From a phage, in the NCBI GenBank assembly GCA_024572335.1, contig GCA_024572335.1_3052.1: 64,000 nt of DNA. One strand, given 5' to 3'. Below, piece by piece: positions 1,005-63,522 of the stretch. A program made the translations under genes and the position numbers. The notes under the pieces were generated by a model that was given only the letters and a program-made list of their open reading frames with translations, ran no database searches and had not been told where the DNA came from. The stretch's first letter is position 1, and every line of letters begins with the position of its first letter.

Positions 1005-1499
1005 TTAATTAAGGATATTAATTACTGCACTACGTGGAACTACACTAAAATCACCTGCATGAACAACGTTCAGAAGTTCAACACCGTCTTCAATCCACTG
1101 ATCAGTTACCCATCCACTCACTGGACCTGCGAACGGACGTCGAATTGAAACAGCTTTACACAACAAATCAGTAGGCTCAATAGGCTTAACCAGAGTACCG
1201 TACATACAAGCGATATCCATATCAATACAGATGTCTTTAACGGGTTCTACTTCTTCAATCAACAGTTCAAAGTCGGTGCTTGGAAGGGCGGTAGTAGAAA
1301 TTGTACCGTATGAATTTTTAATTTCTAAGAATAACCAAGGGCCTTCAGCTTGTTTGATGAAGTTAACAATAGTGAAACTATTACCTTGAGTGGCGCCTAA
1401 AATTTCACAAAACTTTTCATAAGCTCGCACTGAAGCACCATACCAGTTGATTTGCTTTTCGTCTTTCAGGATGTAAGTAGCTGTAGTACTGATATTCAT
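1005..1499 (-). CDS. Hypothetical early protein; paralog trio member 3 (C-terminal domain only)
   Basis: 164 aa ATG ORF; C-terminal VTDQWIEDGVELLNVVHAGDF. Confidence 0.6.
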   Translation of the reverse strand: MNISTTATYILKDEKQINWYGASVRAYEKFCEILGATQGNSFTIVNFIKQAEGPWLFLEIKNSYGTISTTALPSTDFELLIEEVEPVKDICIDMDIACMYGTLVKPIEPTDLLCKAVSIRRPFAGPVSGWVTDQWIEDGVELLNVVHAGDFSVVPRSAVINILN

Positions 1500-1511
1500 G
1501 ATGTTTTCCCC

Positions 1512-2024
1512 TTAATCTAAGGTAATAAAGCCTTTTAATTCGGCGTGTGATTTGCGGAACATTACTTGATGTCCGCCAATGATAACTTGGTCATCTGGAA
1601 CTTCATAAATCGCAATGTACATTCCACGTTCTTTTAAGTCTTCACGCTCTTCTCGAGTGAACCATCTCATCATATCATATTCACTAGCGAAAGCAAAATG
1701 ATATAATGCAATAAACCACAATGGAATATAATTTTCAATTCGTGAATAATCTTTATTCCATTTAGTTTTAATAACATCATTAGCATTTTCAACTAATAAC
1801 TTATCATCGTGTGGAATAGGAATACTTTCATGGCTTTCATAATTATCGCTATGATGATGAAATGACGATGAATTAATACCGCAAAATTTTAGCCAAGTTC
1901 GAGTTTTCATAGAATCAAATCCACGATAAGGAGTTGATTGAACGCATAACTCTTGCCTAATTTTCATTATACCACTATCATCATTTAATGCGCTAAACGA
2001 TGATTCAACACGATAAATTTTCAT
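1512..2024 (-). CDS. Hypothetical protein
   Basis: Track ORF 1512..2063 begins at TTG inside a promoter; internal ATG at 2024 (MKIYRV) follows SD GAGGA. Confidence 0.5.
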   Translation of the reverse strand: MKIYRVESSFSALNDDSGIMKIRQELCVQSTPYRGFDSMKTRTWLKFCGINSSSFHHHSDNYESHESIPIPHDDKLLVENANDVIKTKWNKDYSRIENYIPLWFIALYHFAFASEYDMMRWFTREEREDLKERGMYIAIYEVPDDQVIIGGHQVMFRKSHAELKGFITLD

Positions 2025-7477: not shown

Positions 7478-7948
7478 CTAGCGATAAAAACCAAATTGAC
7501 GATTAGTTTCAATGATCTTTCTTTCTTCTTCGGACATTCTCCAGCGTAGTCCAACATCAAAATGAGCCCAGACCATCCTAACAAATGCATTTATATCTTT
7601 AATATCTTCAATAATGAATGTTTTACTTTTAGAAGGTTGACTCGCTAATTTAACTTTATCGTCTTCAAACATGTCAAAAAGACCATATTCATGAGCTCTT
7701 TTATAGCCTTTAATAGTTAAAGCTTCAGAAGAAGAAAATGGTGAATCTGTATTCTGCAAAATATCTTCAGTATGCTTTATAATTAGAATAATATTTTCTG
7801 GATATTTTCTTTCTTTTATATCTTTAATTAAAATATCCGGATTTTCTGCTAAAGGAATAATTAACGAGCATTTTTTATCAAGTGTATTTACTGATTTACC
7901 TTCTTTAGACATAAATCCTATTGAATACAGTTTTGCTACTTCAATCAT
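7478..7948 (-). CDS. Hypothetical protein
   Basis: 156 aa ATG ORF. Confidence 0.5.
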
Positions 7949-8101: not shown

Positions 8102-8305
8102 TCATGATTTATCACCATAGATGTCTCTCATCAATTTAAGCGCTGAGCGTTCTAATTTCTTTTCTTTCTCAGCACTAATCATTGATTTCATCCATTCTTC
8201 TGACTCGTTCTGCATTTCTTTATTTGCTTGTTCAACCCAACCATCATCAATATACATTGAGTTTGGTCTATTGAACCATTCAAGAATCTTCTTGAGAGCT
8301 TTCAT
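8102..8305 (-). CDS. Hypothetical small protein
   Basis: 67 aa ATG ORF. Confidence 0.4.
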
Positions 8306-8765
8306 TTATTTTACCTAAAACAATAGTATGGACACCGTCAAATTCATGAATTTTTAGCAAATTTGGATGTAAACTATTCCATACAGAAGAAATAAAGTAT
8401 GATAACGCATCTTCACTCGCAATTATAAATTTGTTTCCTTTATCTATTTTCCAGTTATATATTGAATCGTACGAATAAAAAGATAAGGGTTTATCATTAT
8501 ATTGTTCTGCGCTAACATTAATGTATTCGGATTTAGTAAATGCTTCAATTGCTCTAAATGGAATATTTGGTACAGTTTCAATAATTCCGATCTTTTTAAG
8601 TTTTATTTCAGCATCTTCTGGAACTGGCATTGAAACGAAATTTTCTACGAGATACATTGGGTCACAATAACCCTTATCAATCACTACGGCTACAGTAATT
8701 GGAACATCTTTAGCAAACGACATGCTATTACTGCTAATATACATTTCAAACAAAATCGCTTCCAT
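8280..8765 (-). CDS. Hypothetical protein
   Basis: Track ORF 8280..8777 has TTG start; internal ATG at 8765 (MEAILF) follows SD GAGGA. Confidence 0.45.
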
Positions 8766-8773
8766 AATTTTCC

Positions 8774-9115
8774 TCAATCACAAGATGTAGATGAACAACT
8801 AGAATCACAAGAACTTCCACATGAATCACCTGCCCATACATGAACAGGAACATTGGTGTCATATGAATCAGAACTAGACTGTGTATTCTGTGCATTAGAT
8901 GATGTAGTAGGTACTGACCAGCGCCAAGGATTTTTATAATATTCTTGGGCTTCTTCATAAGTCATAGTAACTGCTTCTACTGTTCCATCTCCCATATAAA
9001 CATATTCAACTACAGTTAAAGGAAGATAGTCATTTGAGATAGGAACTACACCTTCTCCCGGAGTTGTAGAGAAAAAATCTGTAAAGAAATTTTTAAACCA
9101 ATTAAAGATAAACAT
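8774..9115 (-). CDS. Hypothetical protein with Cys/Ser-rich C-terminal tail
   Basis: 113 aa; C-terminus [18 protein letters not shown]. Confidence 0.45.
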
Positions 9116-9327
9116 TACAAAAAGCCTCTTTGAAATTCGACTCTTTGAAATCCACCCCAGTCAGTATATCGCATTTCAGCATTGAACTCGACTGAACCAT
9201 CTGCATGCATCATGAATGAATGCGTGACGACATCACAATCCCAGCTTTTCATACCCCATTTATCAGAGATAGCTTTATCAAGAACCTTCTGAAGGTCTTC
9301 ATTTGGTTTAATCCAACGATTTAACAT
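9115..9327 (-). CDS. Hypothetical small protein
   Basis: 70 aa ATG ORF downstream of a canonical early promoter and SD GGAG. Confidence 0.45.
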   Translation of the reverse strand: MLNRWIKPNEDLQKVLDKAISDKWGMKSWDCDVVTHSFMMHADGSVEFNAEMRYTDWGGFQRVEFQRGFL

Positions 9328-9353: not shown

Positions 9354-9383
9354 ATTATACCATACTCATTTTGGAAAGTAAAC
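9354..9383 (-). promoter_or_regulatory. Early promoter (canonical)
   Basis: GTTTAC, 17 nt, tgGTATAAT extended -10; SD GGAG then ATG 9327. Confidence 0.65.
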
Positions 9384-9397
9384 CAGTAAAATGAAAA

Positions 9398-9419
9398 AAG
9401 GACTCCCGGAGGAGTCCTT
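9398..9419 (-). terminator. Intrinsic terminator after soc
   Basis: Minus-strand RNA AAGGACUCC-UCCG-GGAGUCCUU followed by UUUUUUCAUUUU. Confidence 0.75.
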
Positions 9420-9669: not shown

Positions 9670-9699
9670 GTAATTCTCCTTTTATTTAAATTACATGAT

Positions 9700-9707
9700 T
9701 ATTTATA
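9700..9707 (-). promoter_or_regulatory. Late promoter for soc
   Basis: TATAAATA on minus strand about 30 nt upstream of soc ATG, then SD AAGGAG. Confidence 0.65.
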
Positions 9708-9751
9708 ATAATTCTCACGGCTTTTAAGTCGTCGTTTAAATAAACGAGCTA

Positions 9752-10330: not shown

Positions 10331-11670
<1,340 letters not shown>

Positions 11671-12997: not shown

Positions 12998-13162
12998 TTA
13001 CTCTTCTTTTTCTTTAGATTCCTCTTTTTTCTTTTTAGGAATCTGTTCAGGACCTTTATTTACTACAGCGCCTGATGTTGTTCCAGTAGAGATATTTTCA
13101 GGACTACCACCTGAATCTCCAGCGACCATATTTTCTTTGATAAATTCTTTATATGTTTTCAT
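12998..13162 (-). CDS. Small low-complexity protein with capsid-targeting-like N-terminus
   Basis: 54 aa ORF not in track (below 60 aa); translated by hand: MKTYKEFIKENMVAGDSGGSPENISTGTTSGAVVNKGPEQIPKKKKEESKEKEE; stop 2 nt before gene 61 ATG. Confidence 0.35.
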   Translation of the reverse strand: MKTYKEFIKENMVAGDSGGSPENISTGTTSGAVVNKGPEQIPKKKKEESKEKEE

Positions 13163-13206
13163 ATTAACCTCTATTCATAAAAGCATTAAAAATTTGGTCA
13201 TCAATA
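13160..13206. repeat. Direct repeat copy A (3' end of the 118-aa gene plus next start codon)
   Basis: About 47 nt, roughly 90 percent identical to 13518..13564. Confidence 0.8.
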
Positions 13207-13520
13207 GATGGCGCAGTAATATTTTCTGCATCATTTAGCAAATCATTAATTTCATCAGATAGCATAACACACGTACCTTTATTTCCTGTAATTGTTACTG
13301 CACAATTACGAACGTTTTCTTTATCAAATTTTAGGTTAATATTTTCATAGTGAAAATCCTTTAATGCCGAATATATCTTTAAAATGAAATTGTCTTTTAC
13401 TACAATAAACCCAACCTCACTATTAAAACGCGGTTCATGGAAACTGTAATAAACCTTTTCATCTATAAAATCGTATGAAATTTTTTCCATTTTTAAATAT
13501 GAAAATTCAGAACTATACAT
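13164..13520 (-). CDS. Hypothetical protein (61.1/61.2 region)
   Basis: 118 aa ATG ORF; C-terminal SIDDQIFNAFMNRG duplicated from upstream gene. Confidence 0.5.
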   Translation of the reverse strand: MYSSEFSYLKMEKISYDFIDEKVYYSFHEPRFNSEVGFIVVKDNFILKIYSALKDFHYENINLKFDKENVRNCAVTITGNKGTCVMLSDEINDLLNDAENITAPSIDDQIFNAFMNRG

Positions 13521-13564
13521 ATTAACCTTTATTCATAAAAGCATTAAAAATTTGATCGTCAATA
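13518..13564. repeat. Direct repeat copy B (3' end of the 213-aa gene plus next start codon)
   Basis: Near-identical to 13160..13206; both encode IDDQIFNAFMN[RK]G-stop. Confidence 0.8.
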
Positions 13565-14154
13565 GAAACTTTTACTTTAGGCTGTTCTTCAAACGGTAAT
13601 TCATATCCACATATTACAATTTTGTGATCGATACCAAAATACACAGAAGCAATATTATTAATATTATTTTCAGTGAAATCTAAATCAACATCAATATCTT
13701 TTTGACTAACGCTCAAAGGATAATTAATACGAATAATTCGATTATCTTTAACAAAGATTCCACCGACATACTCTGTGCTGCGTTTAAAGTTTACACGTTT
13801 CCTAAATGAAAAATATTCAGGTTCTTTATGCGCTCGACTCATAGGGCTTAAAGTGTATTCCGAATATGAAATATCAAATCCTACACCTTCAATATGAGCC
13901 AACGTGTCATGATTAAACCAATTATAATCATATGCCAAATCCATTATATTGTAATATGTGAAAGGCACCGGATTAACATCATGTGTTGTACCTTTAAAAT
14001 CTGCCCAGGCAACGATTTCGTTATCTTTAACAATTACAAAAATTGTGCCAATAAGATATCCACGGTTATTTTCATCAGGCGTTATATTATAACATTGTGC
14101 ATCAGGAAATTTACCGTATTTAAACGGTGGATTTTTGTGCATATAATAAATCAT
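13522..14154 (-). CDS. Hypothetical protein (61.1/61.2 region)
   Basis: Track ORF 13522..14163 has GTG start; ATG at 14154; C-terminal SIDDQIFNAFMNKG. Confidence 0.5.
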   Translation of the reverse strand: MIYYMHKNPPFKYGKFPDAQCYNITPDENNRGYLIGTIFVIVKDNEIVAWADFKGTTHDVNPVPFTYYNIMDLAYDYNWFNHDTLAHIEGVGFDISYSEYTLSPMSRAHKEPEYFSFRKRVNFKRSTEYVGGIFVKDNRIIRINYPLSVSQKDIDVDLDFTENNINNIASVYFGIDHKIVICGYELPFEEQPKVKVSIDDQIFNAFMNKG

Positions 14155-14155
14155 A

Positions 14156-14449
14156 TTATTCACCTGTGATTTCAGTTACGATATTTTTGTTATTAAAGTT
14201 TTTATCGCAATACAAAACATAATTATACTGCATTACACCACCAGACTTAAGCTGTTTTTGTACTTCAGCTTTCATTTCAGGGCGATCACGCTCAACGATA
14301 TTCATAATATCTGCTTCAATCTGAGTTTCAACTTCAGTCTGATCCGCAGTCATAGACCATTCACACAAATCTTTATCATAACCTGCCATAGCAGGCTGAG
14401 CAGCACAAGAAGCTAAAGCAAAAATTGCAGCAAAAACAAATTTTTTCAT
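14156..14449 (-). CDS. sp: Periplasmic protein Spackle-like (Sp)
   Basis: 97 aa with cleavable signal peptide MKKFVFAAIFALASCAAQPAMA; size and position as T4 sp. Confidence 0.6.
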   Translation of the reverse strand: MKKFVFAAIFALASCAAQPAMAGYDKDLCEWSMTADQTEVETQIEADIMNIVERDRPEMKAEVQKQLKSGGVMQYNYVLYCDKNFNNKNIVTEITGE

Positions 14450-14509: not shown

Positions 14510-14767
14510 TTATTTTAAAACTTCTGCATAATCACATGTTACAAACTGTTTCTCTAACTTGACGATTTTACGAAAGTATCTTTTGCATTGACGAATCTGT
14601 CGCTTCGTAGGACGTACAGCAAACTTAATAAATTCCACTCGACCAAATGGAGGACTTTCTTCTGCTGGAATATCTAACACCAATTCCCACGTATCTGCAA
14701 TAAGTGCTTTGAATTGAGTATTTTTCCTGACGTTATACGGAGTAGGTTTAAATAAAACAATATGCAT
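14510..14767 (-). CDS. Hypothetical protein (61.4 position)
   Basis: Track ORF 14510..14821 has TTG start; ATG at 14767 (MHIVLF) follows SD AGGA and abuts dmd stop. Confidence 0.45.
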   Translation of the reverse strand: MHIVLFKPTPYNVRKNTQFKALIADTWELVLDIPAEESPPFGRVEFIKFAVRPTKRQIRQCKRYFRKIVKLEKQFVTCDYAEVLK

Positions 14768-14768
14768 A

Positions 14769-14951
14769 TTATCCTCGGAAATCCACTTCGCACACTTTCT
14801 TGTCATCAATGAAAGCTTCAACTAATGCTTTATTAACTTCAGCATATTGAGTAGTAGCCCATTGAACGTCATCTTTCATCATTGTGATTTCTTTAGTAAA
14901 CATGCTTTCATTCTTAAACCACCCCATAAAAACTACCTTTACCAATTCCAT
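14769..14951 (-). CDS. dmd: Dmd-like antitoxin (discriminator of mRNA degradation)
   Basis: 60 aa, same length and position as T4 Dmd (gene 61.5) just downstream of gene 41; own early promoter. Confidence 0.6.
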   Translation of the reverse strand: MELVKVVFMGWFKNESMFTKEITMMKDDVQWATTQYAEVNKALVEAFIDDKKVCEVDFRG

Positions 14952-14980
14952 AACAATCTCCTCATTTAACCAACAAGACT

Positions 14981-15010
14981 ACTATACCATAGTCTTGTCA
15001 GCTTGTAAAC
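14981..15010 (-). promoter_or_regulatory. Early promoter upstream of dmd
   Basis: GTTTAC overlapping gene 41 stop, 17 nt, GTATAGT; SD GAGGAG. Confidence 0.55.
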
Positions 15011-16437
15011 TAAAATTTTAATTCATTCGCCAAAGCATCTAACTGAGCTCGAGCTGATTCATTTCTTTGATAGCGATTTTGCTCAGCCTGAATCTGTTGT
15101 GAACCTGCTACTTCGTTCACTTCGGTTGGAGTAGAATCTTGTTCAATTTCTACCCATTTCTGATTTCCTTTTTGAACACCCATCAAAAACTTATTCCACT
15201 TATTCTTATCGCCATATCGTGATTTGATTTGCTTAATGAGTTGTTGTTCAGCAGCTGCTAGCTCCTCGGTTTCAATGACCGCAAGCATAAAATCAGCTGT
15301 TGCTGGAAGACCAGCAGATTCTGCAATATCGCTCATGTTAACATCGGAAGAGTCCCAAGCTTGTTTACCAACCTGTGCTGCAGTCCAAAGAACGGTTTCG
15401 GTTTCAACAGCCAGAGCACGTAATTCCTCTGCAATAGCTTTAACAGTTGTGTAACTATTTTCTGAATAAACTCTAATGCGGCAAGATTTACAAATACCTA
15501 GATAGTCGACAATAATGATTGTTGGAACAAAATTCTTTTTGAGCTTCAATTCATTCAAGAGAGACCTGAATGTATTAGCGTCTGCTCCACCAGTAGGATA
15601 TTGTTTAACGATTAAACGACCGAGAGTAGATTTCTCACGCCATTTTTCCATTTTTCCTTTATACTCAGCGTAAGAAATATGCCCATCATCAATGTCATCA
15701 AGAGAAACATCAAGCATATTAGCATCAATACGCTTAGCACAGACTTCTTCTGCCATTTCCATGGAGATATAAAGAACGTTATGACCAAGCTGCAAATAAT
15801 CTGCTGCTAATGAACAAAGTCCTAATGATTTACCAACGTTAACACCAGCCATTAAAACGTTCAGTGTTCCAGTCTCAGCTCCGCCTTTAGTAATTTTGTT
15901 TAGAATTCTGAGTTTAAATGGAACCTTACGAGCTTTATTCATATAAGATAGCCAACGTGCTTCGTAGTCATCCATCCAATCATGACCAACGTAGCTATCA
16001 AATGAAATTGATAATGCTTGACGCATGATGTCAGGAATAGCACCAACATCCGGCATTTTCTTATTTCGTTTTTCCGGAGGAAGCTCAGCATTAGTTTGAA
16101 TTTCGATTATTTTAGACGTAGCATTAAACATTGCTCGTTGCTGAACATATTTTTCAGTTTCTTTTACTAACCAACTGTGATCTTCTGGAGAATCAACTAG
16201 TTTTGAAATAAGTGTTTTTACACCAGAATATTCTGTTTCAGTAAATGAACTATTTTCTAATGCAACAATTAACGCATTAATAGATGGAACGCTATGGTAC
16301 TCATTAACATGAGATTTAATTAATTTGAATGTATTTTTAGCTGGACCACTTTCAAAATATTCTGAATCCATATATGGCCAAACTTTTGAAAAATAAGCTT
16401 GATCAAATATGAGATGAGAAAGAATAATTTCTACCAC
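15010..16437 (-). CDS. 41: Replicative DNA helicase gp41 (DnaB family)
   Basis: 475 aa; Walker A GVNVGKS; GTG start with strong SD TAAGGAG. Confidence 0.9.
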   Translation of the reverse strand: MVEIILSHLIFDQAYFSKVWPYMDSEYFESGPAKNTFKLIKSHVNEYHSVPSINALIVALENSSFTETEYSGVKTLISKLVDSPEDHSWLVKETEKYVQQRAMFNATSKIIEIQTNAELPPEKRNKKMPDVGAIPDIMRQALSISFDSYVGHDWMDDYEARWLSYMNKARKVPFKLRILNKITKGGAETGTLNVLMAGVNVGKSLGLCSLAADYLQLGHNVLYISMEMAEEVCAKRIDANMLDVSLDDIDDGHISYAEYKGKMEKWREKSTLGRLIVKQYPTGGADANTFRSLLNELKLKKNFVPTIIIVDYLGICKSCRIRVYSENSYTTVKAIAEELRALAVETETVLWTAAQVGKQAWDSSDVNMSDIAESAGLPATADFMLAVIETEELAAAEQQLIKQIKSRYGDKNKWNKFLMGVQKGNQKWVEIEQDSTPTEVNEVAGSQQIQAEQNRYQRNESARAQLDALANELKF

Positions 16438-62693: not shown

Positions 62694-62770
<77 letters not shown>

Positions 62771-62777
62771 TATTTTG

Positions 62778-62849
62778 CGGACGTGATAGGATTCGAACCT
62801 ATAACCAATCGCTTAACAGGCGATCGCTCTGCCATTGAGCTACACATCC
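62778..62849 (-). tRNA. tRNA-Asn (anticodon GUU)
   Basis: Acceptor GGATGTG/CACGTCC, D-stem GCTC/GAGC, anticodon stem ATCGC/GCGAT, loop CTGTTAA, T-loop TTCGAAT; CCA not encoded. Confidence 0.8.
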
Positions 62850-62853
62850 AAAT

Positions 62854-62940
62854 TGGTGGGGAGTGGTGGAGTCGAACCACCCGAGTCGCAATGACAATGA
62901 ATTTACAGTCCACACCGCTACCTCTACGGGATAACTCCCC
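62854..62940 (-). tRNA. tRNA-Tyr (anticodon GUA), long variable arm
   Basis: Acceptor GGGGAGT/ACTCCCC, anticodon loop CTGTAAA, variable arm TGTCATTGCGACTCG similar to E. coli tRNA-Tyr; CCA encoded. Confidence 0.75.
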
Positions 62941-62949
62941 AAATTAATT

Positions 62950-63024
62950 TGGTGGCCCTGGGTGGAATTGAACCACCATCTGGCGATTATGAGTCGCTTG
63001 CTTGAACCTTCCAGCTACAGGGCC
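62950..63024 (-). tRNA. tRNA-Ile (anticodon CAU, lysidine-type as in T4) or Met
   Basis: Acceptor GGCCCTG/CAGGGCC, anticodon loop CTCATAA, T-arm GGTGG-TTCAATT-CCACC; CCA encoded. Confidence 0.75.
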
Positions 63025-63025
63025 T

Positions 63026-63101
63026 TGGTGCTGATTAACGGAATCGAACCGCCGACCTTCTCATTACAAGTGAGTTGCTCTACCTACTGAGCTAAATCAG
63101 C
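63026..63101 (-). tRNA. tRNA-Thr (anticodon UGU)
   Basis: Acceptor GCTGATT, D-stem GCTC/GAGC, anticodon loop CTTGTAA, T-loop TTCGATT; CCA encoded. Confidence 0.85.
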
Positions 63102-63106
63102 AAAAC

Positions 63107-63196
63107 TGGCGGAGGCGATAGGATTTGAACCTATGAGTCGCCGGAGCGACTGCCGGTTTTCAAGACCGGTGCATTAAACCACTCTGCCACGCCTCC
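63107..63196 (-). tRNA. tRNA-Ser (anticodon UGA), long variable arm
   Basis: Acceptor GGAGGCG, anticodon stem CCGGT/ACCGG, loop CTTGAAA, long variable arm; CCA encoded. Confidence 0.85.
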
Positions 63197-63198
63197 AG

Positions 63199-63272
63199 TC
63201 TCCATACAAGGATTTGAACCTTGGACCTCCTGATCCCAAATCAGGCGCTCTACCAAACTGAGCTACACGGAG
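63199..63272 (-). tRNA. tRNA-Pro (anticodon UGG)
   Basis: Acceptor CTCCGTG, anticodon stem CCTGA/TCAGG, loop TTTGGGA, T-loop TTCAAAT; CCA not encoded. Confidence 0.85.
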
Positions 63273-63282
63273 TAAATTAAAT

Positions 63283-63356
<74 letters not shown>

Positions 63357-63361
63357 AAATT

Positions 63362-63448
63362 TGGTGCGAGAAGTGGGACTCGAACCCACAAGGAAATCAT
63401 TCCGCAGCATTTTAAGTGCTGTGCCTTTACCAATTTGACCATTCTCGC
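63362..63448 (-). tRNA. tRNA-Leu (anticodon UAA), long variable arm
   Basis: Acceptor GCGAGAA, anticodon stem CAGCA/TGCTG, loop CTTAAAA, long variable arm, T-loop TTCGAGT; CCA encoded. Confidence 0.85.
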
Positions 63449-63449
63449 G

Positions 63450-63522
63450 CTGGGAATAAAGGACTCGAACCTTTGCATCCTGGAATCAAAATCCAGTGCC
63501 TTACCAACTTGGCTAATTCCCA
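63450..63522 (-). tRNA. tRNA-Gln (anticodon UUG)
   Basis: Acceptor TGGGAAT/ATTCCCA, anticodon stem CTGGA/TCCAG, loop TTTTGAT; CCA not encoded; separated from tRNA-Leu by 1 nt. Confidence 0.85.

Follow-up and report, generated by a model that had tools for sequence, protein, structure and literature searches.

The conserved C-terminal Cys-Asp tail of Mrh.1, a DUF7206 protein of T-even phages

What purpose might be served by a short tail, rich in cysteine and serine, at the end of a small phage protein that has no other cysteine? This question is raised by an open reading frame at positions 8774..9115 of the reverse strand in a 64,000-nt stretch of phage DNA (the window; contig GCA_024572335.1_3052.1 of assembly GCA_024572335.1). 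A preliminary description, made from the sequence alone, had singled out the tail as a separate module unlike the remaining protein, and had suggested that it might bind metal, undergo post-translational modification or act as a disulfide-rich secreted tag. The reading frame and the tail are exactly as described there, and the modular character of the tail is borne out by the comparisons reported below.

Identity and genomic context of mrh.1

The window phage is a T4-like phage of the genus Tequatrovirus which, unlike T4 itself, carries no segF between soc and 56. The reading frame starts with ATG, encodes 113 amino acids and is the mrh.1 gene of this phage; as judged by sequence its product is the orthologue of T4 Mrh.1 (UniProt P20706), with which it shares 110 of 113 residues. 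Relative to the T4 protein it carries the substitutions N9 for S, V68 for T and A75 for T, and the tails of the two are identical. In T4, too, the gene lies between mrh.2 and mrh and has the same early promoter context. The window protein matches the Pfam family DUF7206 (PF23836) over the entire profile (positions 1-107 of 107; 104.1 bits against a cut-off of 25.6, E=7.7e-30) as well as phrog_2031 (E=1.8e-33). It also carries both DUF7206 features, namely the signature E-Y-x-Y-[MV]-G-D-G-x-x-E-x-V and a C-terminus of the form ...S-C-D-S...S-C-[DEN]. Mrh.1 is an ordinary member of this already catalogued family, which has no assigned function. A full-text literature search returned no paper on mrh.1 or DUF7206, and the literature around mrh, mrh.2 and modA.x comprised only work on Mrh, a CRISPR-escape study using mrh.2, and unrelated papers.

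The RNA of T4 mrh.1 has been classed as early, and the protein was not detected in a T4 time-course proteome (PMC9697503 supplement); this non-detection is weak evidence because trypsin yields only peptides of 8, 53, 4 and 48 residues from Mrh.1. Mrh.1 is a small early product of the T-even host-takeover region and is dispensable in the laboratory.

The gene order 56-soc-mrh.2-mrh.1-mrh/srh-modB-dda is found in every genus and extends to the most divergent members; the neighbours of mrh.1 across genera are soc, mrh.2, mrh, srh, modA.2-.4, modB and dda. Directly upstream in the window lies mrh.2 (9115..9327, reverse strand; 70 aa, phrog_1873), whose stop codon overlaps the mrh.1 start in the sequence TAATG, implying translational coupling. 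This arrangement is common to most genera; the Kosakonia phage Kc304 is without mrh.2. The best promoter match in the region, at 9354..9382 on the reverse strand, is of the early sigma-70 type (TTTACT-17 nt-TATAAT with an extended TG, 10/12 matching) and, on its sequence, serves mrh.2, mrh.1 and mrh as well as the genes that follow them. Upstream of it, a predicted intrinsic terminator hairpin follows soc (9398..9419, reverse strand; 9 pairs, 5 of them GC, and a T-run). At the other end of mrh.1, the stop codon overlaps the mrh Shine-Dalgarno sequence GAGG within TGAGGAAAATTATG (8763..8776, reverse strand; mrh ATG at 8765..8763). No Rfam family was found in the mrh.1 region. Among the neighbours, srh is annotated as a sigma-32 decoy and Mrh as affecting sigma-32 phosphorylation.

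Conservation of the tail and selection at the protein level

The tail comprises residues 96-113 (8777..8830, reverse strand, with the stop codon at 8774..8776). All cysteines of the protein reside in it, at positions 99, 103, 107 and 112, giving the pattern C-x3-C-x3-C-x4-C. Such a composition is not expected by chance: given the composition of the window's own long reading frames (1.4% Cys, 6.6% Ser), the probability of at least 4 Cys in 18 residues is 1e-4, and that of at least 9 Ser is 6e-7. Among the other window reading frames of at least 40 aa, none shows a comparable tail or a C[DE] terminus.

To appreciate how far this feature extends, we compared 115 full-length relatives from at least 10 genera of enterobacterial T-even phages (the DUF7206 family itself has 138 members). 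Searches of phages with tblastn mask the tail as low complexity, and the orthologue tails were read directly from fetched DNA. Complete phage genomes contain roughly 780 orthologues. An exhaustive single-sequence search of 1.84 billion representatives gave only 10 matches; of these, P0010 and P0013 were set aside as low-complexity artefacts, being long and repetitive and aligning with the Ser-rich linker. A scan of IMG/VR gave only 7 loci, nearly all from Tequatrovirus.

None of the 115 relatives is without a recognisable version of the tail, and in every one of them Cys is the penultimate residue, which answers the possibility, allowed for in the preliminary description, that the tail might be conserved in no homologue. 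The last residue is D (110 sequences), E (3) or N (2), and position -3 is S or G. Exactly two tail cysteines, 4-9 residues apart and each normally within S-C-D, occur in 112 of the 115, and Asp follows the upstream Cys in 107. RB69 ORF025c and JS98 Mrh.1 are examples of two-Cys orthologues. Cysteine makes up 8.2% of the family's tails against 0.1% of the rest of the protein, and the overall tail composition is 41% S, 15% G, 14% D and 8.5% Y. In a Yersinia phage, vB_YenM_P8, the terminal S-C-D alone is kept, and this protein represents a natural one-Cys variant.

Against this background, C103-D104 and C112-D113 of the window protein represent the ancestral pair of S-C-D motifs, and C99 and C107 are specific to Tequatrovirus; the matching positions in other genera hold Ser, Gly, Asp or Tyr. 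These additional cysteines, both encoded by TGT, sit four residues to each side of C103 and are fixed in all sampled Tequatrovirus sequences, the whole tail being identical among T4, T2, RB14, EO1, IME537 and slur07. The Cys/Ser-rich tail first noted in the window is therefore real, but its four-Cys look belongs to the T4 group only, and the family as a whole has a Ser/Gly/Asp/Tyr-rich tail with two cysteines.

Could such a tail be conserved for reasons unrelated to the protein, as a neutral low-complexity run or as DNA kept because the next gene has its ribosome-binding site or its start there? The overlap between the mrh.1 stop and the mrh Shine-Dalgarno sequence might suggest so, as might two divergent phages in which about 50 nt of the tail-coding DNA also belong to the following gene. 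However, the stop/Shine-Dalgarno overlap is specific to Tequatrovirus and so cannot explain a family-wide C-terminal Cys-Asp. The sequence 3' of the stop varies by genus (the mrh Shine-Dalgarno, an overlapping srh start, or no adjacent gene at all), with C-[D/E/N]-stop kept throughout. Moreover, TGT and TGC, GAT and GAC, and even the TCN and AGY serine codons interchange within the tail while the amino acids stay unchanged. The synonymous variation and the differing downstream contexts together show protein-level selection on the tail, and with its conservation in 115 of 115 relatives they effectively refute a tail without function of its own, to which we give almost no credence.

Modular architecture and a putative membrane-targeting helix

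We modelled two family members with AlphaFold, the window protein and a Gaprivervirus member. Both models were of low confidence and mostly disordered (pLDDT of 56.6 for the window protein), and neither contained a predicted transmembrane segment. Mrh.1 would be built of short functional pieces rather than a globular domain.

The first of these pieces is an amphipathic, aromatic helix at the N-terminus (residues 1-15; 9071..9115, reverse strand), modelled at residues 2-15 in the window protein and 3-8 in the Gaprivervirus member, which we regard as a putative membrane-targeting element. The family consensus here is M-I-x-W-L-K-N-L-F-K, continued in most members by T-K-P-G-E-G. K8 and F11 are invariant in one alignment (A2), and K8 is near-invariant in another of 83 sequences (A3). 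The hydrophobic moment of this segment is 0.49 in the window protein and 0.58 and 0.61 in two other members. Compared with the reading frames of the window (mean 0.29, 95th percentile 0.57), the latter two reach the 95th percentile and the first lies well above the mean.

Membrane-targeting helices of the MinD/FtsA type are terminal and amphipathic, with Lys/Arg flanking a hydrophobic face, and the Mrh.1 N-terminus has this form. It is like those of MinD (whose MTS is KGFLKRLFGG; PMC5471200), FtsA and ARF1 (PMC3189734) in being a short, Lys-flanked amphipathic helix with a core of [FW]-L-K-x-L-F and a comparable hydrophobic moment. The Mrh.1 helix is N-terminal, whereas those of MinD and FtsA are C-terminal, and unlike that of ARF1 it is not myristoylated; the relation is a resemblance and not homology. 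From the resemblance and the hydrophobic moment we infer that Mrh.1 is tethered to the membrane, the helix most likely parking the protein on the cytoplasmic face of the inner membrane.

The character of this N-terminus also bears on the suggestion of a disulfide-rich secreted tag. An even number of cysteines could give one or two disulfide loops, but we found no signal-peptide h-region by inspection of 115 N-termini and no predicted transmembrane segment. Where a signal peptide would have its hydrophobic core, Mrh.1 has a short amphipathic helix that contains Lys and leads into PGEG, and the gene is of an early, cytoplasmic type. Secretion is thus unsupported, and we consider it very improbable.

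The helix is followed by a Pro/Gly motif, PGEGVVPI (residues 19-26; 9038..9061, reverse strand), in which P19 and P25 are invariant in A2 and P19 is near-invariant in A3. The sole predicted folded element, a beta-hairpin with a short helix, spans residues 34-61 (8933..9016, reverse strand; strands 34-40 and 46-52, helix 53-61, pLDDT 70-79). It carries the E-Y-x-Y-[MV]-G-D-G-x-x-E-x-V signature, whose Y40, G42, G44 and E47 have zero column entropy and whose D43 and V49 are near-invariant. Residues 62-95 (8831..8932, reverse strand) form a variable Ser/Thr/Asn/Gln-rich linker that is predicted to be disordered, with pLDDT below 50 from residue 69. Its length varies through indels within Tequatrovirus (proteins of 110-113 aa), and other genera have longer, helical linkers instead, such as the helices modelled at 55-74 and 78-88 of the Gaprivervirus member. 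The tail itself has pLDDT below 50 in both independent models. Mrh.1 would thus consist of a membrane helix, a tiny folded core and a variable disordered spacer, ending in a flexible C-terminal peptide with two invariant Cys-Asp dyads, the second of them at the very end.

A profile search of the PDB found no relative (best E=0.17), and Foldseek found nothing there below E=2, although such a search has little power at a model pLDDT of 56.6. Against BFVD, Foldseek gave one significant match (E=1.4e-11), a member of the same family, with all others at E of 0.05 or above. PADLOC gave no match at E<=1, and no annotated anti-defence family was found.

Possible functions of the Cys-Asp tail

Of the roles suggested for the tail in the preliminary description, metal binding appears the most plausible, although we hold even this putative role with low confidence. 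An unstructured terminus rich in Cys, Asp, Gly and Ser could bind metal as metallothioneins and metal-binding tails do, a known example of a Cys-rich metal-binding tail being the C-terminus of SlyD. Mrh.1 departs from metallothioneins in having only two cysteines (four in the T4 group), no CxC or CxxC clusters and no His. A search for metallothionein motifs with the whole protein or the tail alone returned no such Pfam family at E<=10. The FeoB-associated Cys-rich family (PF12669) appeared at E=2.4, with 9 bits against a cut-off of 27, and was rejected as a chance match. These proteins resemble Mrh.1 in being small, with an N-terminal membrane element (putative in Mrh.1) and a short Cys-rich C-terminal tail, but they have a true transmembrane helix and CxxC-type spacing, and Mrh.1 is not a member.

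The modification role fares worse. A RiPP-like precursor would have an N-terminal leader and a Ser/Cys core converted to thiazoles or oxazoles, lanthionines or thioethers. Mrh.1 has superficially this layout: its conserved N-terminal part followed by a Gly/Ser/Cys-rich C-terminus recalls Cys/Ser-rich precursors such as McbA, the microcin B17 precursor, which has a C-terminus of this kind. Yet neither the protein nor its tail nor a two-Cys orthologue matched any NCBIfam family at E<=10, and Pfam gave only DUF7206. Unlike the case of McbA, no synthetase or maturase gene lies nearby; in none of the at least 10 genera did we find a modifying enzyme near mrh.1, be it a cyclodehydratase, a dehydratase or a radical-SAM enzyme, nor an adjoining protease or exporter. 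As mrh.1 is, in addition, an early gene of a lytic phage, a RiPP precursor seems highly unlikely.

Our best guess, a tentative one, is that Mrh.1, an early protein, is tethered to the membrane and uses the thiolates of its flexible C-terminus, aided by the adjacent carboxylates, to chelate a metal ion or a small Fe-S cluster. Two chains, or one chain and a host partner, might build the site jointly in the ancestral two-Cys proteins, and in the T4 group, where two cysteines were gained at regular spacing, a single chain could supply all four ligands. We hypothesise that the step from two to four cysteines reflects the completion of a four-ligand site, a pattern that a single-nucleophile or single-disulfide role would not predict; the chelation itself and any host target are likewise hypothesised. 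A precedent for a shared site is the Rad50-type zinc hook, in which two cysteines from each of two chains form one Cys4 metal site. Two-Cys Mrh.1 members would fit this idea, although the zinc hook places its CxxC at the tip of a coiled coil, whereas in Mrh.1 the cysteines lie 4-9 residues from each other on a C-terminus predicted to be disordered, and a dimer would be hypothetical. A possible passage from dimer to monomer, in which loss of the linker helices would accompany the gain of two cysteines, is a weak argument, with counter-examples in the two-Cys members with short linkers from Mosigvirus (82 aa) and P0011 (96 aa) and in the hybrid P0003.

Several observations weigh against a chelate. 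The cysteines are spaced by x3/x4 in T4 and x4-x9 elsewhere, rather than by the CxxC or CxC of zinc and metallothionein sites; adjacent Cys and Asp rarely both bind the same ion; and no metal-binding family matches Mrh.1. The strict C-terminal placing of the last Cys-Asp is unexplained by metal binding alone, and the vB_YenM_P8 protein is more easily reconciled with a single thiol or with C-terminal recognition than with a chelate.

A single-thiol role could take the form of a relay or covalent capture, in which the C-terminal Cys, as a nucleophile, receives a persulfide or becomes linked to a host protein through a mixed disulfide. By mimicking the mobile catalytic loop of IscS, for instance, it could tap or block host sulfur and Fe-S trafficking. 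Class I cysteine desulfurases carry the signature S-S-G-S-A-C-T-S on a flexible loop (PMC8300815), which the family tail D-S-G-S-C-D-S resembles; both are Ser/Gly-rich flexible segments with a Cys, reactive in IscS/NifS. An invariant Cys on a disordered, solvent-exposed, Ser/Gly-rich tail would suit this role, and the one-Cys variant would be tolerated by it. The likeness to desulfurases, however, is limited to seven low-complexity residues with a one-residue gap and may be due to chance, and Mrh.1 has no PLP domain. A single nucleophile gives no reason for two cysteines in 112 of 115 relatives or for the two extra in T4, and the gene neighbourhood has no link to sulfur metabolism. We regard this relay as rather unlikely.

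Alternatively, ...S-C-[D/E/N]-COOH may be a C-terminal recognition peptide, read by a host or phage protease, adaptor or chaperone as a degron, decoy or anchor, with Cys serving recognition and not chemistry. Such a role would account for a motif that is strictly C-terminal in all 115 relatives, with its restricted last residue and S/G at -3, on a tail disordered in both models; the neighbouring genes, moreover, are host-takeover factors that include the annotated sigma-32 decoy srh. On the other hand, we found no reader of a Cys-Asp C-terminus and know of none in bacteria, and the equally conserved internal S-C-D-S and the extra T4 cysteines are left unaccounted for. A recognition peptide thus seems to us an unlikely explanation.

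The composition of the tail raises yet another alternative, that of a low-complexity Ser/Tyr/Gly/Asp segment used for self-association or as a phospho-acceptor decoy, the cysteines only locking assemblies by oxidation. Its [S/G]-Y-[S/G] and D-S-G-S repeats might make the protein cluster reversibly, or might titrate a Ser/Tyr kinase or phosphatase of the host that belongs to the sigma-32 module. The abundance of S, G, D and Y given above agrees with this, as does the alternation of Y and C at equivalent places of a loose S-[Y/C]-D-S-G-S repeat; adjoining Mrh, too, is the protein annotated as affecting sigma-32 phosphorylation. But the tails of the T4 group are without Tyr, and their Cys is not only kept but multiplied, so that the invariant positions of the tail are Cys and Asp and not aromatics. 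We therefore consider this alternative improbable.

The chelating and relay readings can be combined in a bolder proposal, which we offer as speculation with little chance of being right in full: that Mrh.1 acts as a membrane-tethered, disordered "thiol hook" whose Cys-Asp dyads form an interchain or host-shared metal or Fe-S site, or mimic the mobile IscS loop. Within minutes of the onset of infection it could in this way rewire the trafficking of sulfur or iron or the redox traffic of the host, or else a stress pathway bound to the membrane, sigma-32 control being one example.

Although no lytic phage has been studied more thoroughly than T4, roughly half of its genes, mrh.1 included, are without known function. 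The present analysis resolves one such hypothetical protein into parts that can be tested: a helix that probably targets it to the membrane, a very small folded core, and a C-terminal Cys-Asp peptide whose two dyads are conserved across all sampled enterobacterial T-even genera. If the tail does not bind metal or an Fe-S cluster, or react with a host thiol protein, mrh.1 would be one more conserved accessory gene. If it does, it would reveal a host-takeover target that has gone unexamined. Either way the advance is modest, in that it points to a real, conserved and unexplained feature in a family that had already been catalogued.

The mrh.1 gene, its neighbours and its expression

The open reading frame at 8774..9115 (- strand; ATG start, 113 aa) carries the annotation mrh.1 in T4-type records. 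Its product is identical to T4 Mrh.1 at 110 of 113 residues, including the entire tail, and matches Pfam DUF7206 (PF23836) across the full profile (104 bits; cut-off 25.6) as well as phrog_2031, labelled 'unknown function'. Neither 'mrh.1' nor 'DUF7206' occurs in any paper of the full-text literature searched. Judged by sequence, the gene is a near-identical orthologue of a catalogued T4 gene, in a family that is known and uncharacterised. The Cys/Ser-rich C-terminus reported in the preliminary description is indeed present: residues 96-113 (8777..8830, -) contain 9 Ser in 18 residues and four Cys, at positions 99, 103, 107 and 112 (C-x3-C-x3-C-x4-C), and the protein has no other Cys. Given how frequent Cys (1.4%) and Ser (6.6%) are in the window's long ORFs, the binomial probabilities of these counts are 1e-4 for Cys and 6e-7 for Ser. 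Among the ORFs of at least 40 aa in the 64-kb window, no other shows a similar tail or a Cys-Asp/Glu ending.

The window is DNA of a T4-like phage: the 2.3 kb surrounding mrh.1 match 749 phage records, nearly all Tequatrovirus (best identity ~95-96%), and the gene order on the - strand is dda, modA, modB, modA.2-.4, srh, mrh, mrh.1, mrh.2, soc, 56, dam, 61. Genes soc and 56, separated in T4 by the homing endonuclease gene segF, adjoin here (9670..9751); the phage is a T4 relative without segF. Nine clustered tRNA genes (62697..63522, -) represent the T-even tRNA region.

Several observations concern the neighbouring genes. The label 'molybdenum ABC transporter, periplasmic molybdenum-binding protein ModA', which modA.2, modA.3 and modA.4 widely carry (L001, L009, L010 and many of the matching phage records), is an error propagated from the shared gene name modA. 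ModA.3 (7478..7948, -) and Mrh (8280..8765, -) are paralogues, each matching phrog_1234, 'Mrh transcription modulator' (E=8e-52 and 2e-59), so the locus has two genes of the Mrh family, which flank srh and modA.4. Next to dam (10331..11110) lies a 186-aa ORF (11110..11670, -) whose stop directly adjoins the dam start. It carries a PD-(D/E)xK-like stretch and has a sub-threshold match to the Pfam family of the DpnII restriction endonuclease (E=0.0045, 16.8 bits, cut-off 23); one possibility is a GATC-type nuclease remnant or partner that is coupled to Dam. The 54-aa gp61.1 orthologue (12998..13162, -; phrog_1823, labelled unknown function) begins MKTYKEFIKE, closely resembling the sequence MKTYQEFIAE that targets T4 internal proteins to the capsid from their N-terminus, and continues with a Gly/Ser-rich part and a Lys/Glu-rich tail. 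Finally, full-length AdfA (anti-DarT factor A, E=3e-138; 13522..14163, -) is followed by a truncated tandem paralogue, a 118-aa ORF (13164..13520, -) whose match to AdfA (E=1e-7) is confined to the C-terminal half, with the common ending SIDDQIFNAFMN[KR]G.

Directly after soc lies an intrinsic terminator (9419..9398, -), followed by the region's best promoter, of sigma-70 type (TTTACT-17-TATAAT, preceded by TG; 9382..9354, -); mrh.2 then has a strong Shine-Dalgarno sequence. The stop codon of mrh.2 and the start codon of mrh.1 overlap (TAATG), and the mrh.1 stop in turn overlaps the mrh Shine-Dalgarno sequence (TGAGGAAAATTATG). T4 time-course omics place the transcript of mrh.1 (T4 coordinates 14685..15026) in the 'early' class and the protein in class 'NA', not detected, while the mrh.2, mrh and srh proteins were detected (PMC9697503 supplement). 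By inspection, trypsin is predicted to yield Mrh.1 peptides of 8, 53, 4 and 48 residues, so non-detection is expected and is no argument against translation. As T4 mrh.1 falls within the 39-56 region, described as a non-essential deletion (PMC8262927), the gene is dispensable in laboratory hosts.

Conservation of the C-terminal tail

A single-sequence search returned close relatives only. Because BLAST masks the tail, orthologue tails were taken directly from fetched genomes of Tequatrovirus, Dhakavirus, Gaprivervirus, Moonvirus, Mosigvirus, Winklervirus, Kanagawavirus, Marfavirus and an unclassified Yersinia phage, and a profile search seeded from their alignment (A2) found 138 proteins, every one with PF23836. 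Tail statistics are restricted to the 115 full-length proteins; the few hits without a tail are frameshifted copies or contig-end fragments. The preliminary description would have counted a tail conserved in no homologue against its own reading; the penultimate residue is Cys in 115 of 115. The chain ends with Asp in 110 proteins, with Glu in 3 and with Asn in 2. Exactly two Cys, 4-9 residues apart (mostly 6 or 8), lie within the last 30 residues of 112 of the 115, and four tail Cys are confined to three Tequatrovirus-type clusters. The family tail consists of 41% Ser, 15% Gly, 14% Asp, 8.5% Tyr and 8.2% Cys, and Cys makes up 0.1% of the remaining sequence.

Anchored on the upstream Cys, the tail reads [Y/S]-[S/G]-S-C-D-S-[G/S]-S (+1 Asp in 107 and +2 Ser in 114 of the 115), and anchored on the C-terminus, [S/G]-S-C-[D/E/N]-COOH. 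These motifs point to an ancestral tail with two S-C-D dyads, corresponding to C103-D104 and C112-D113 of the window protein. At the positions of C99 and C107 (both TGT) other genera have Ser, Gly, Asp or Tyr; both Cys are fixed in all Tequatrovirus sampled (T4, T2, RB14, EO1, IME537, slur07 and others). Yersinia phage vB_YenM_P8 is a natural variant whose shortened tail keeps the terminal S-C-D alone. Neither the S-C-D...S-C-D-COOH signature nor the Tequatrovirus-specific Cys doubling appears in the literature searched.

Other variants were seen among the relatives. Mosigvirus has a short form (82 aa), often ending in Cys-Glu. In Escherichia phage HX01 (L013, NC_018855.1) the orthologue at ~1497..1730 (MLKKLFAVKPGEG...DCGSSSGSCE) is missing from the RefSeq annotation, which lists two tiny antisense ORFs across it instead. 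Protein P0003 of Escherichia phage 235Ecol030PP (also in Yersinia phage fPS-90) is a 164-aa hybrid, with a T4-type N-terminus, a four-Cys tail and an inserted Dhakavirus-like linker of ~50 residues (EEIIRQPEKAGNVGAGALPLNSKKLKEHL...PIITATAVSSW), which is evidence for modular recombination within this small gene.

Between genera, both Cys codons vary (TGT/TGC), as does the terminal Asp codon (GAT/GAC; GAA in Mosigvirus), and Ser codons switch between TCN and AGY. After the stop, Tequatrovirus has the mrh Shine-Dalgarno sequence; in Dhakavirus and Gaprivervirus the start of srh overlaps the stop (TAATG), and elsewhere the sequence is unrelated. In the two most divergent metagenomic members (L026, 4251..4306; L027, 4281..4330) the predicted start of the downstream gene lies ~50 nt within the tail-coding DNA, in another frame. 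The region contains no Rfam family. Since the codons vary synonymously and the sequence after the stop differs among genera, a ribosome-binding site or other DNA-level constraint is ruled out as the cause of the invariant Cys-[D/E/N] end. Conservation of the tail acts at the protein level.

Architecture and possible roles of the tail

A low-confidence AlphaFold model of the window protein (83-sequence alignment; pLDDT 56.6) predicts a helix (2-15), a beta-hairpin (34-40/46-52; pLDDT 70-79), a second helix (53-61) and disorder from residue 69 to the C-terminus. In the model of a two-Cys Gaprivervirus orthologue the N-terminal helix and the hairpin recur, the linker is longer and holds two helices, and the tail is likewise disordered. 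Outside the tail, the best-conserved columns are K8, F11/F15, P19, P25 and E37-Y-x-Y-x-G-D-G-x-x-E-x-V49. It is established that Mrh.1 is an early-transcribed, conserved, mostly disordered small protein, and that its flexible C-terminus carries two invariant Cys-Asp dyads under purifying selection; a tail without function is scarcely credible. The N-terminal helix is amphipathic (family consensus M-I-x-W-L-K-N-L-F-K), with a hydrophobic moment of 0.49-0.61; the N-termini of the window's ORFs average 0.29, and their 95th percentile is 0.57. Its resemblance to the lipid-binding helices of E. coli MinD (membrane-targeting sequence KGFLKRLFGG; PMC5471200) and ARF1 (N-terminus MGNIFANLFKGLF; PMC3189734) suggests that it may target or tether Mrh.1 to the membrane.

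Of the families proposed in the preliminary description, metallothioneins gave no Pfam match at E<=10, and the tail has too few Cys, wrongly spaced, to resemble them. The proposed RiPP precursor is very improbable: no NCBIfam or Pfam precursor family matched, and no maturase lies near mrh.1 in any genus examined. So is a secreted disulfide-rich tag, as no signal peptide was found. Searches of defence and counter-defence libraries and PDB sequences, and Foldseek against PDB and BFVD, returned family members and noise only. The tail alone matches FeoB-associated Cys-rich membrane proteins at chance level (E=2.4); these are architectural analogues (membrane element plus Cys tail) and no relatives.

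Invariant paired Cys in a reducing cytoplasm usually indicate metal ligation, and the T4 lineage has gained exactly two Cys, regularly spaced and then frozen. On these grounds we tentatively favour chelation of a metal ion or small Fe-S cluster by the tail thiolates and neighbouring carboxylates. Two-Cys proteins would share the site with another chain or a host partner, and in the T4 group a single chain could complete a four-Cys site. A single-nucleophile or single-disulfide role fails to predict the two extra frozen Cys. Metal chelation, however, has to contend with atypical spacings, a one-Cys natural variant and the lack of a family match of any kind, and it leaves the strict C-terminal placement unexplained. 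A C-terminal recognition peptide or degron is an improbable alternative. Slightly less improbable is a thiol-relay or covalent-capture tail, for example a mimic of the IscS loop: class I cysteine desulfurases have a flexible catalytic loop with the signature S-S-G-S-A-C-T-S (PMC8300815), and the likeness of the family tail, D-S-G-S-C-D-S, to it is one we treat as a lead only. Low-complexity self-association or a phospho-decoy has a smaller chance than either, and the RiPP precursor, the secreted tag and the functionless tail are less likely than all three; the remaining probability falls to something else. A membrane-tethered thiol hook aimed at host metal, sulfur or stress pathways would be a long shot. 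On present evidence the mrh.1 tail represents no surprising system; it is a tidy experimental handle.
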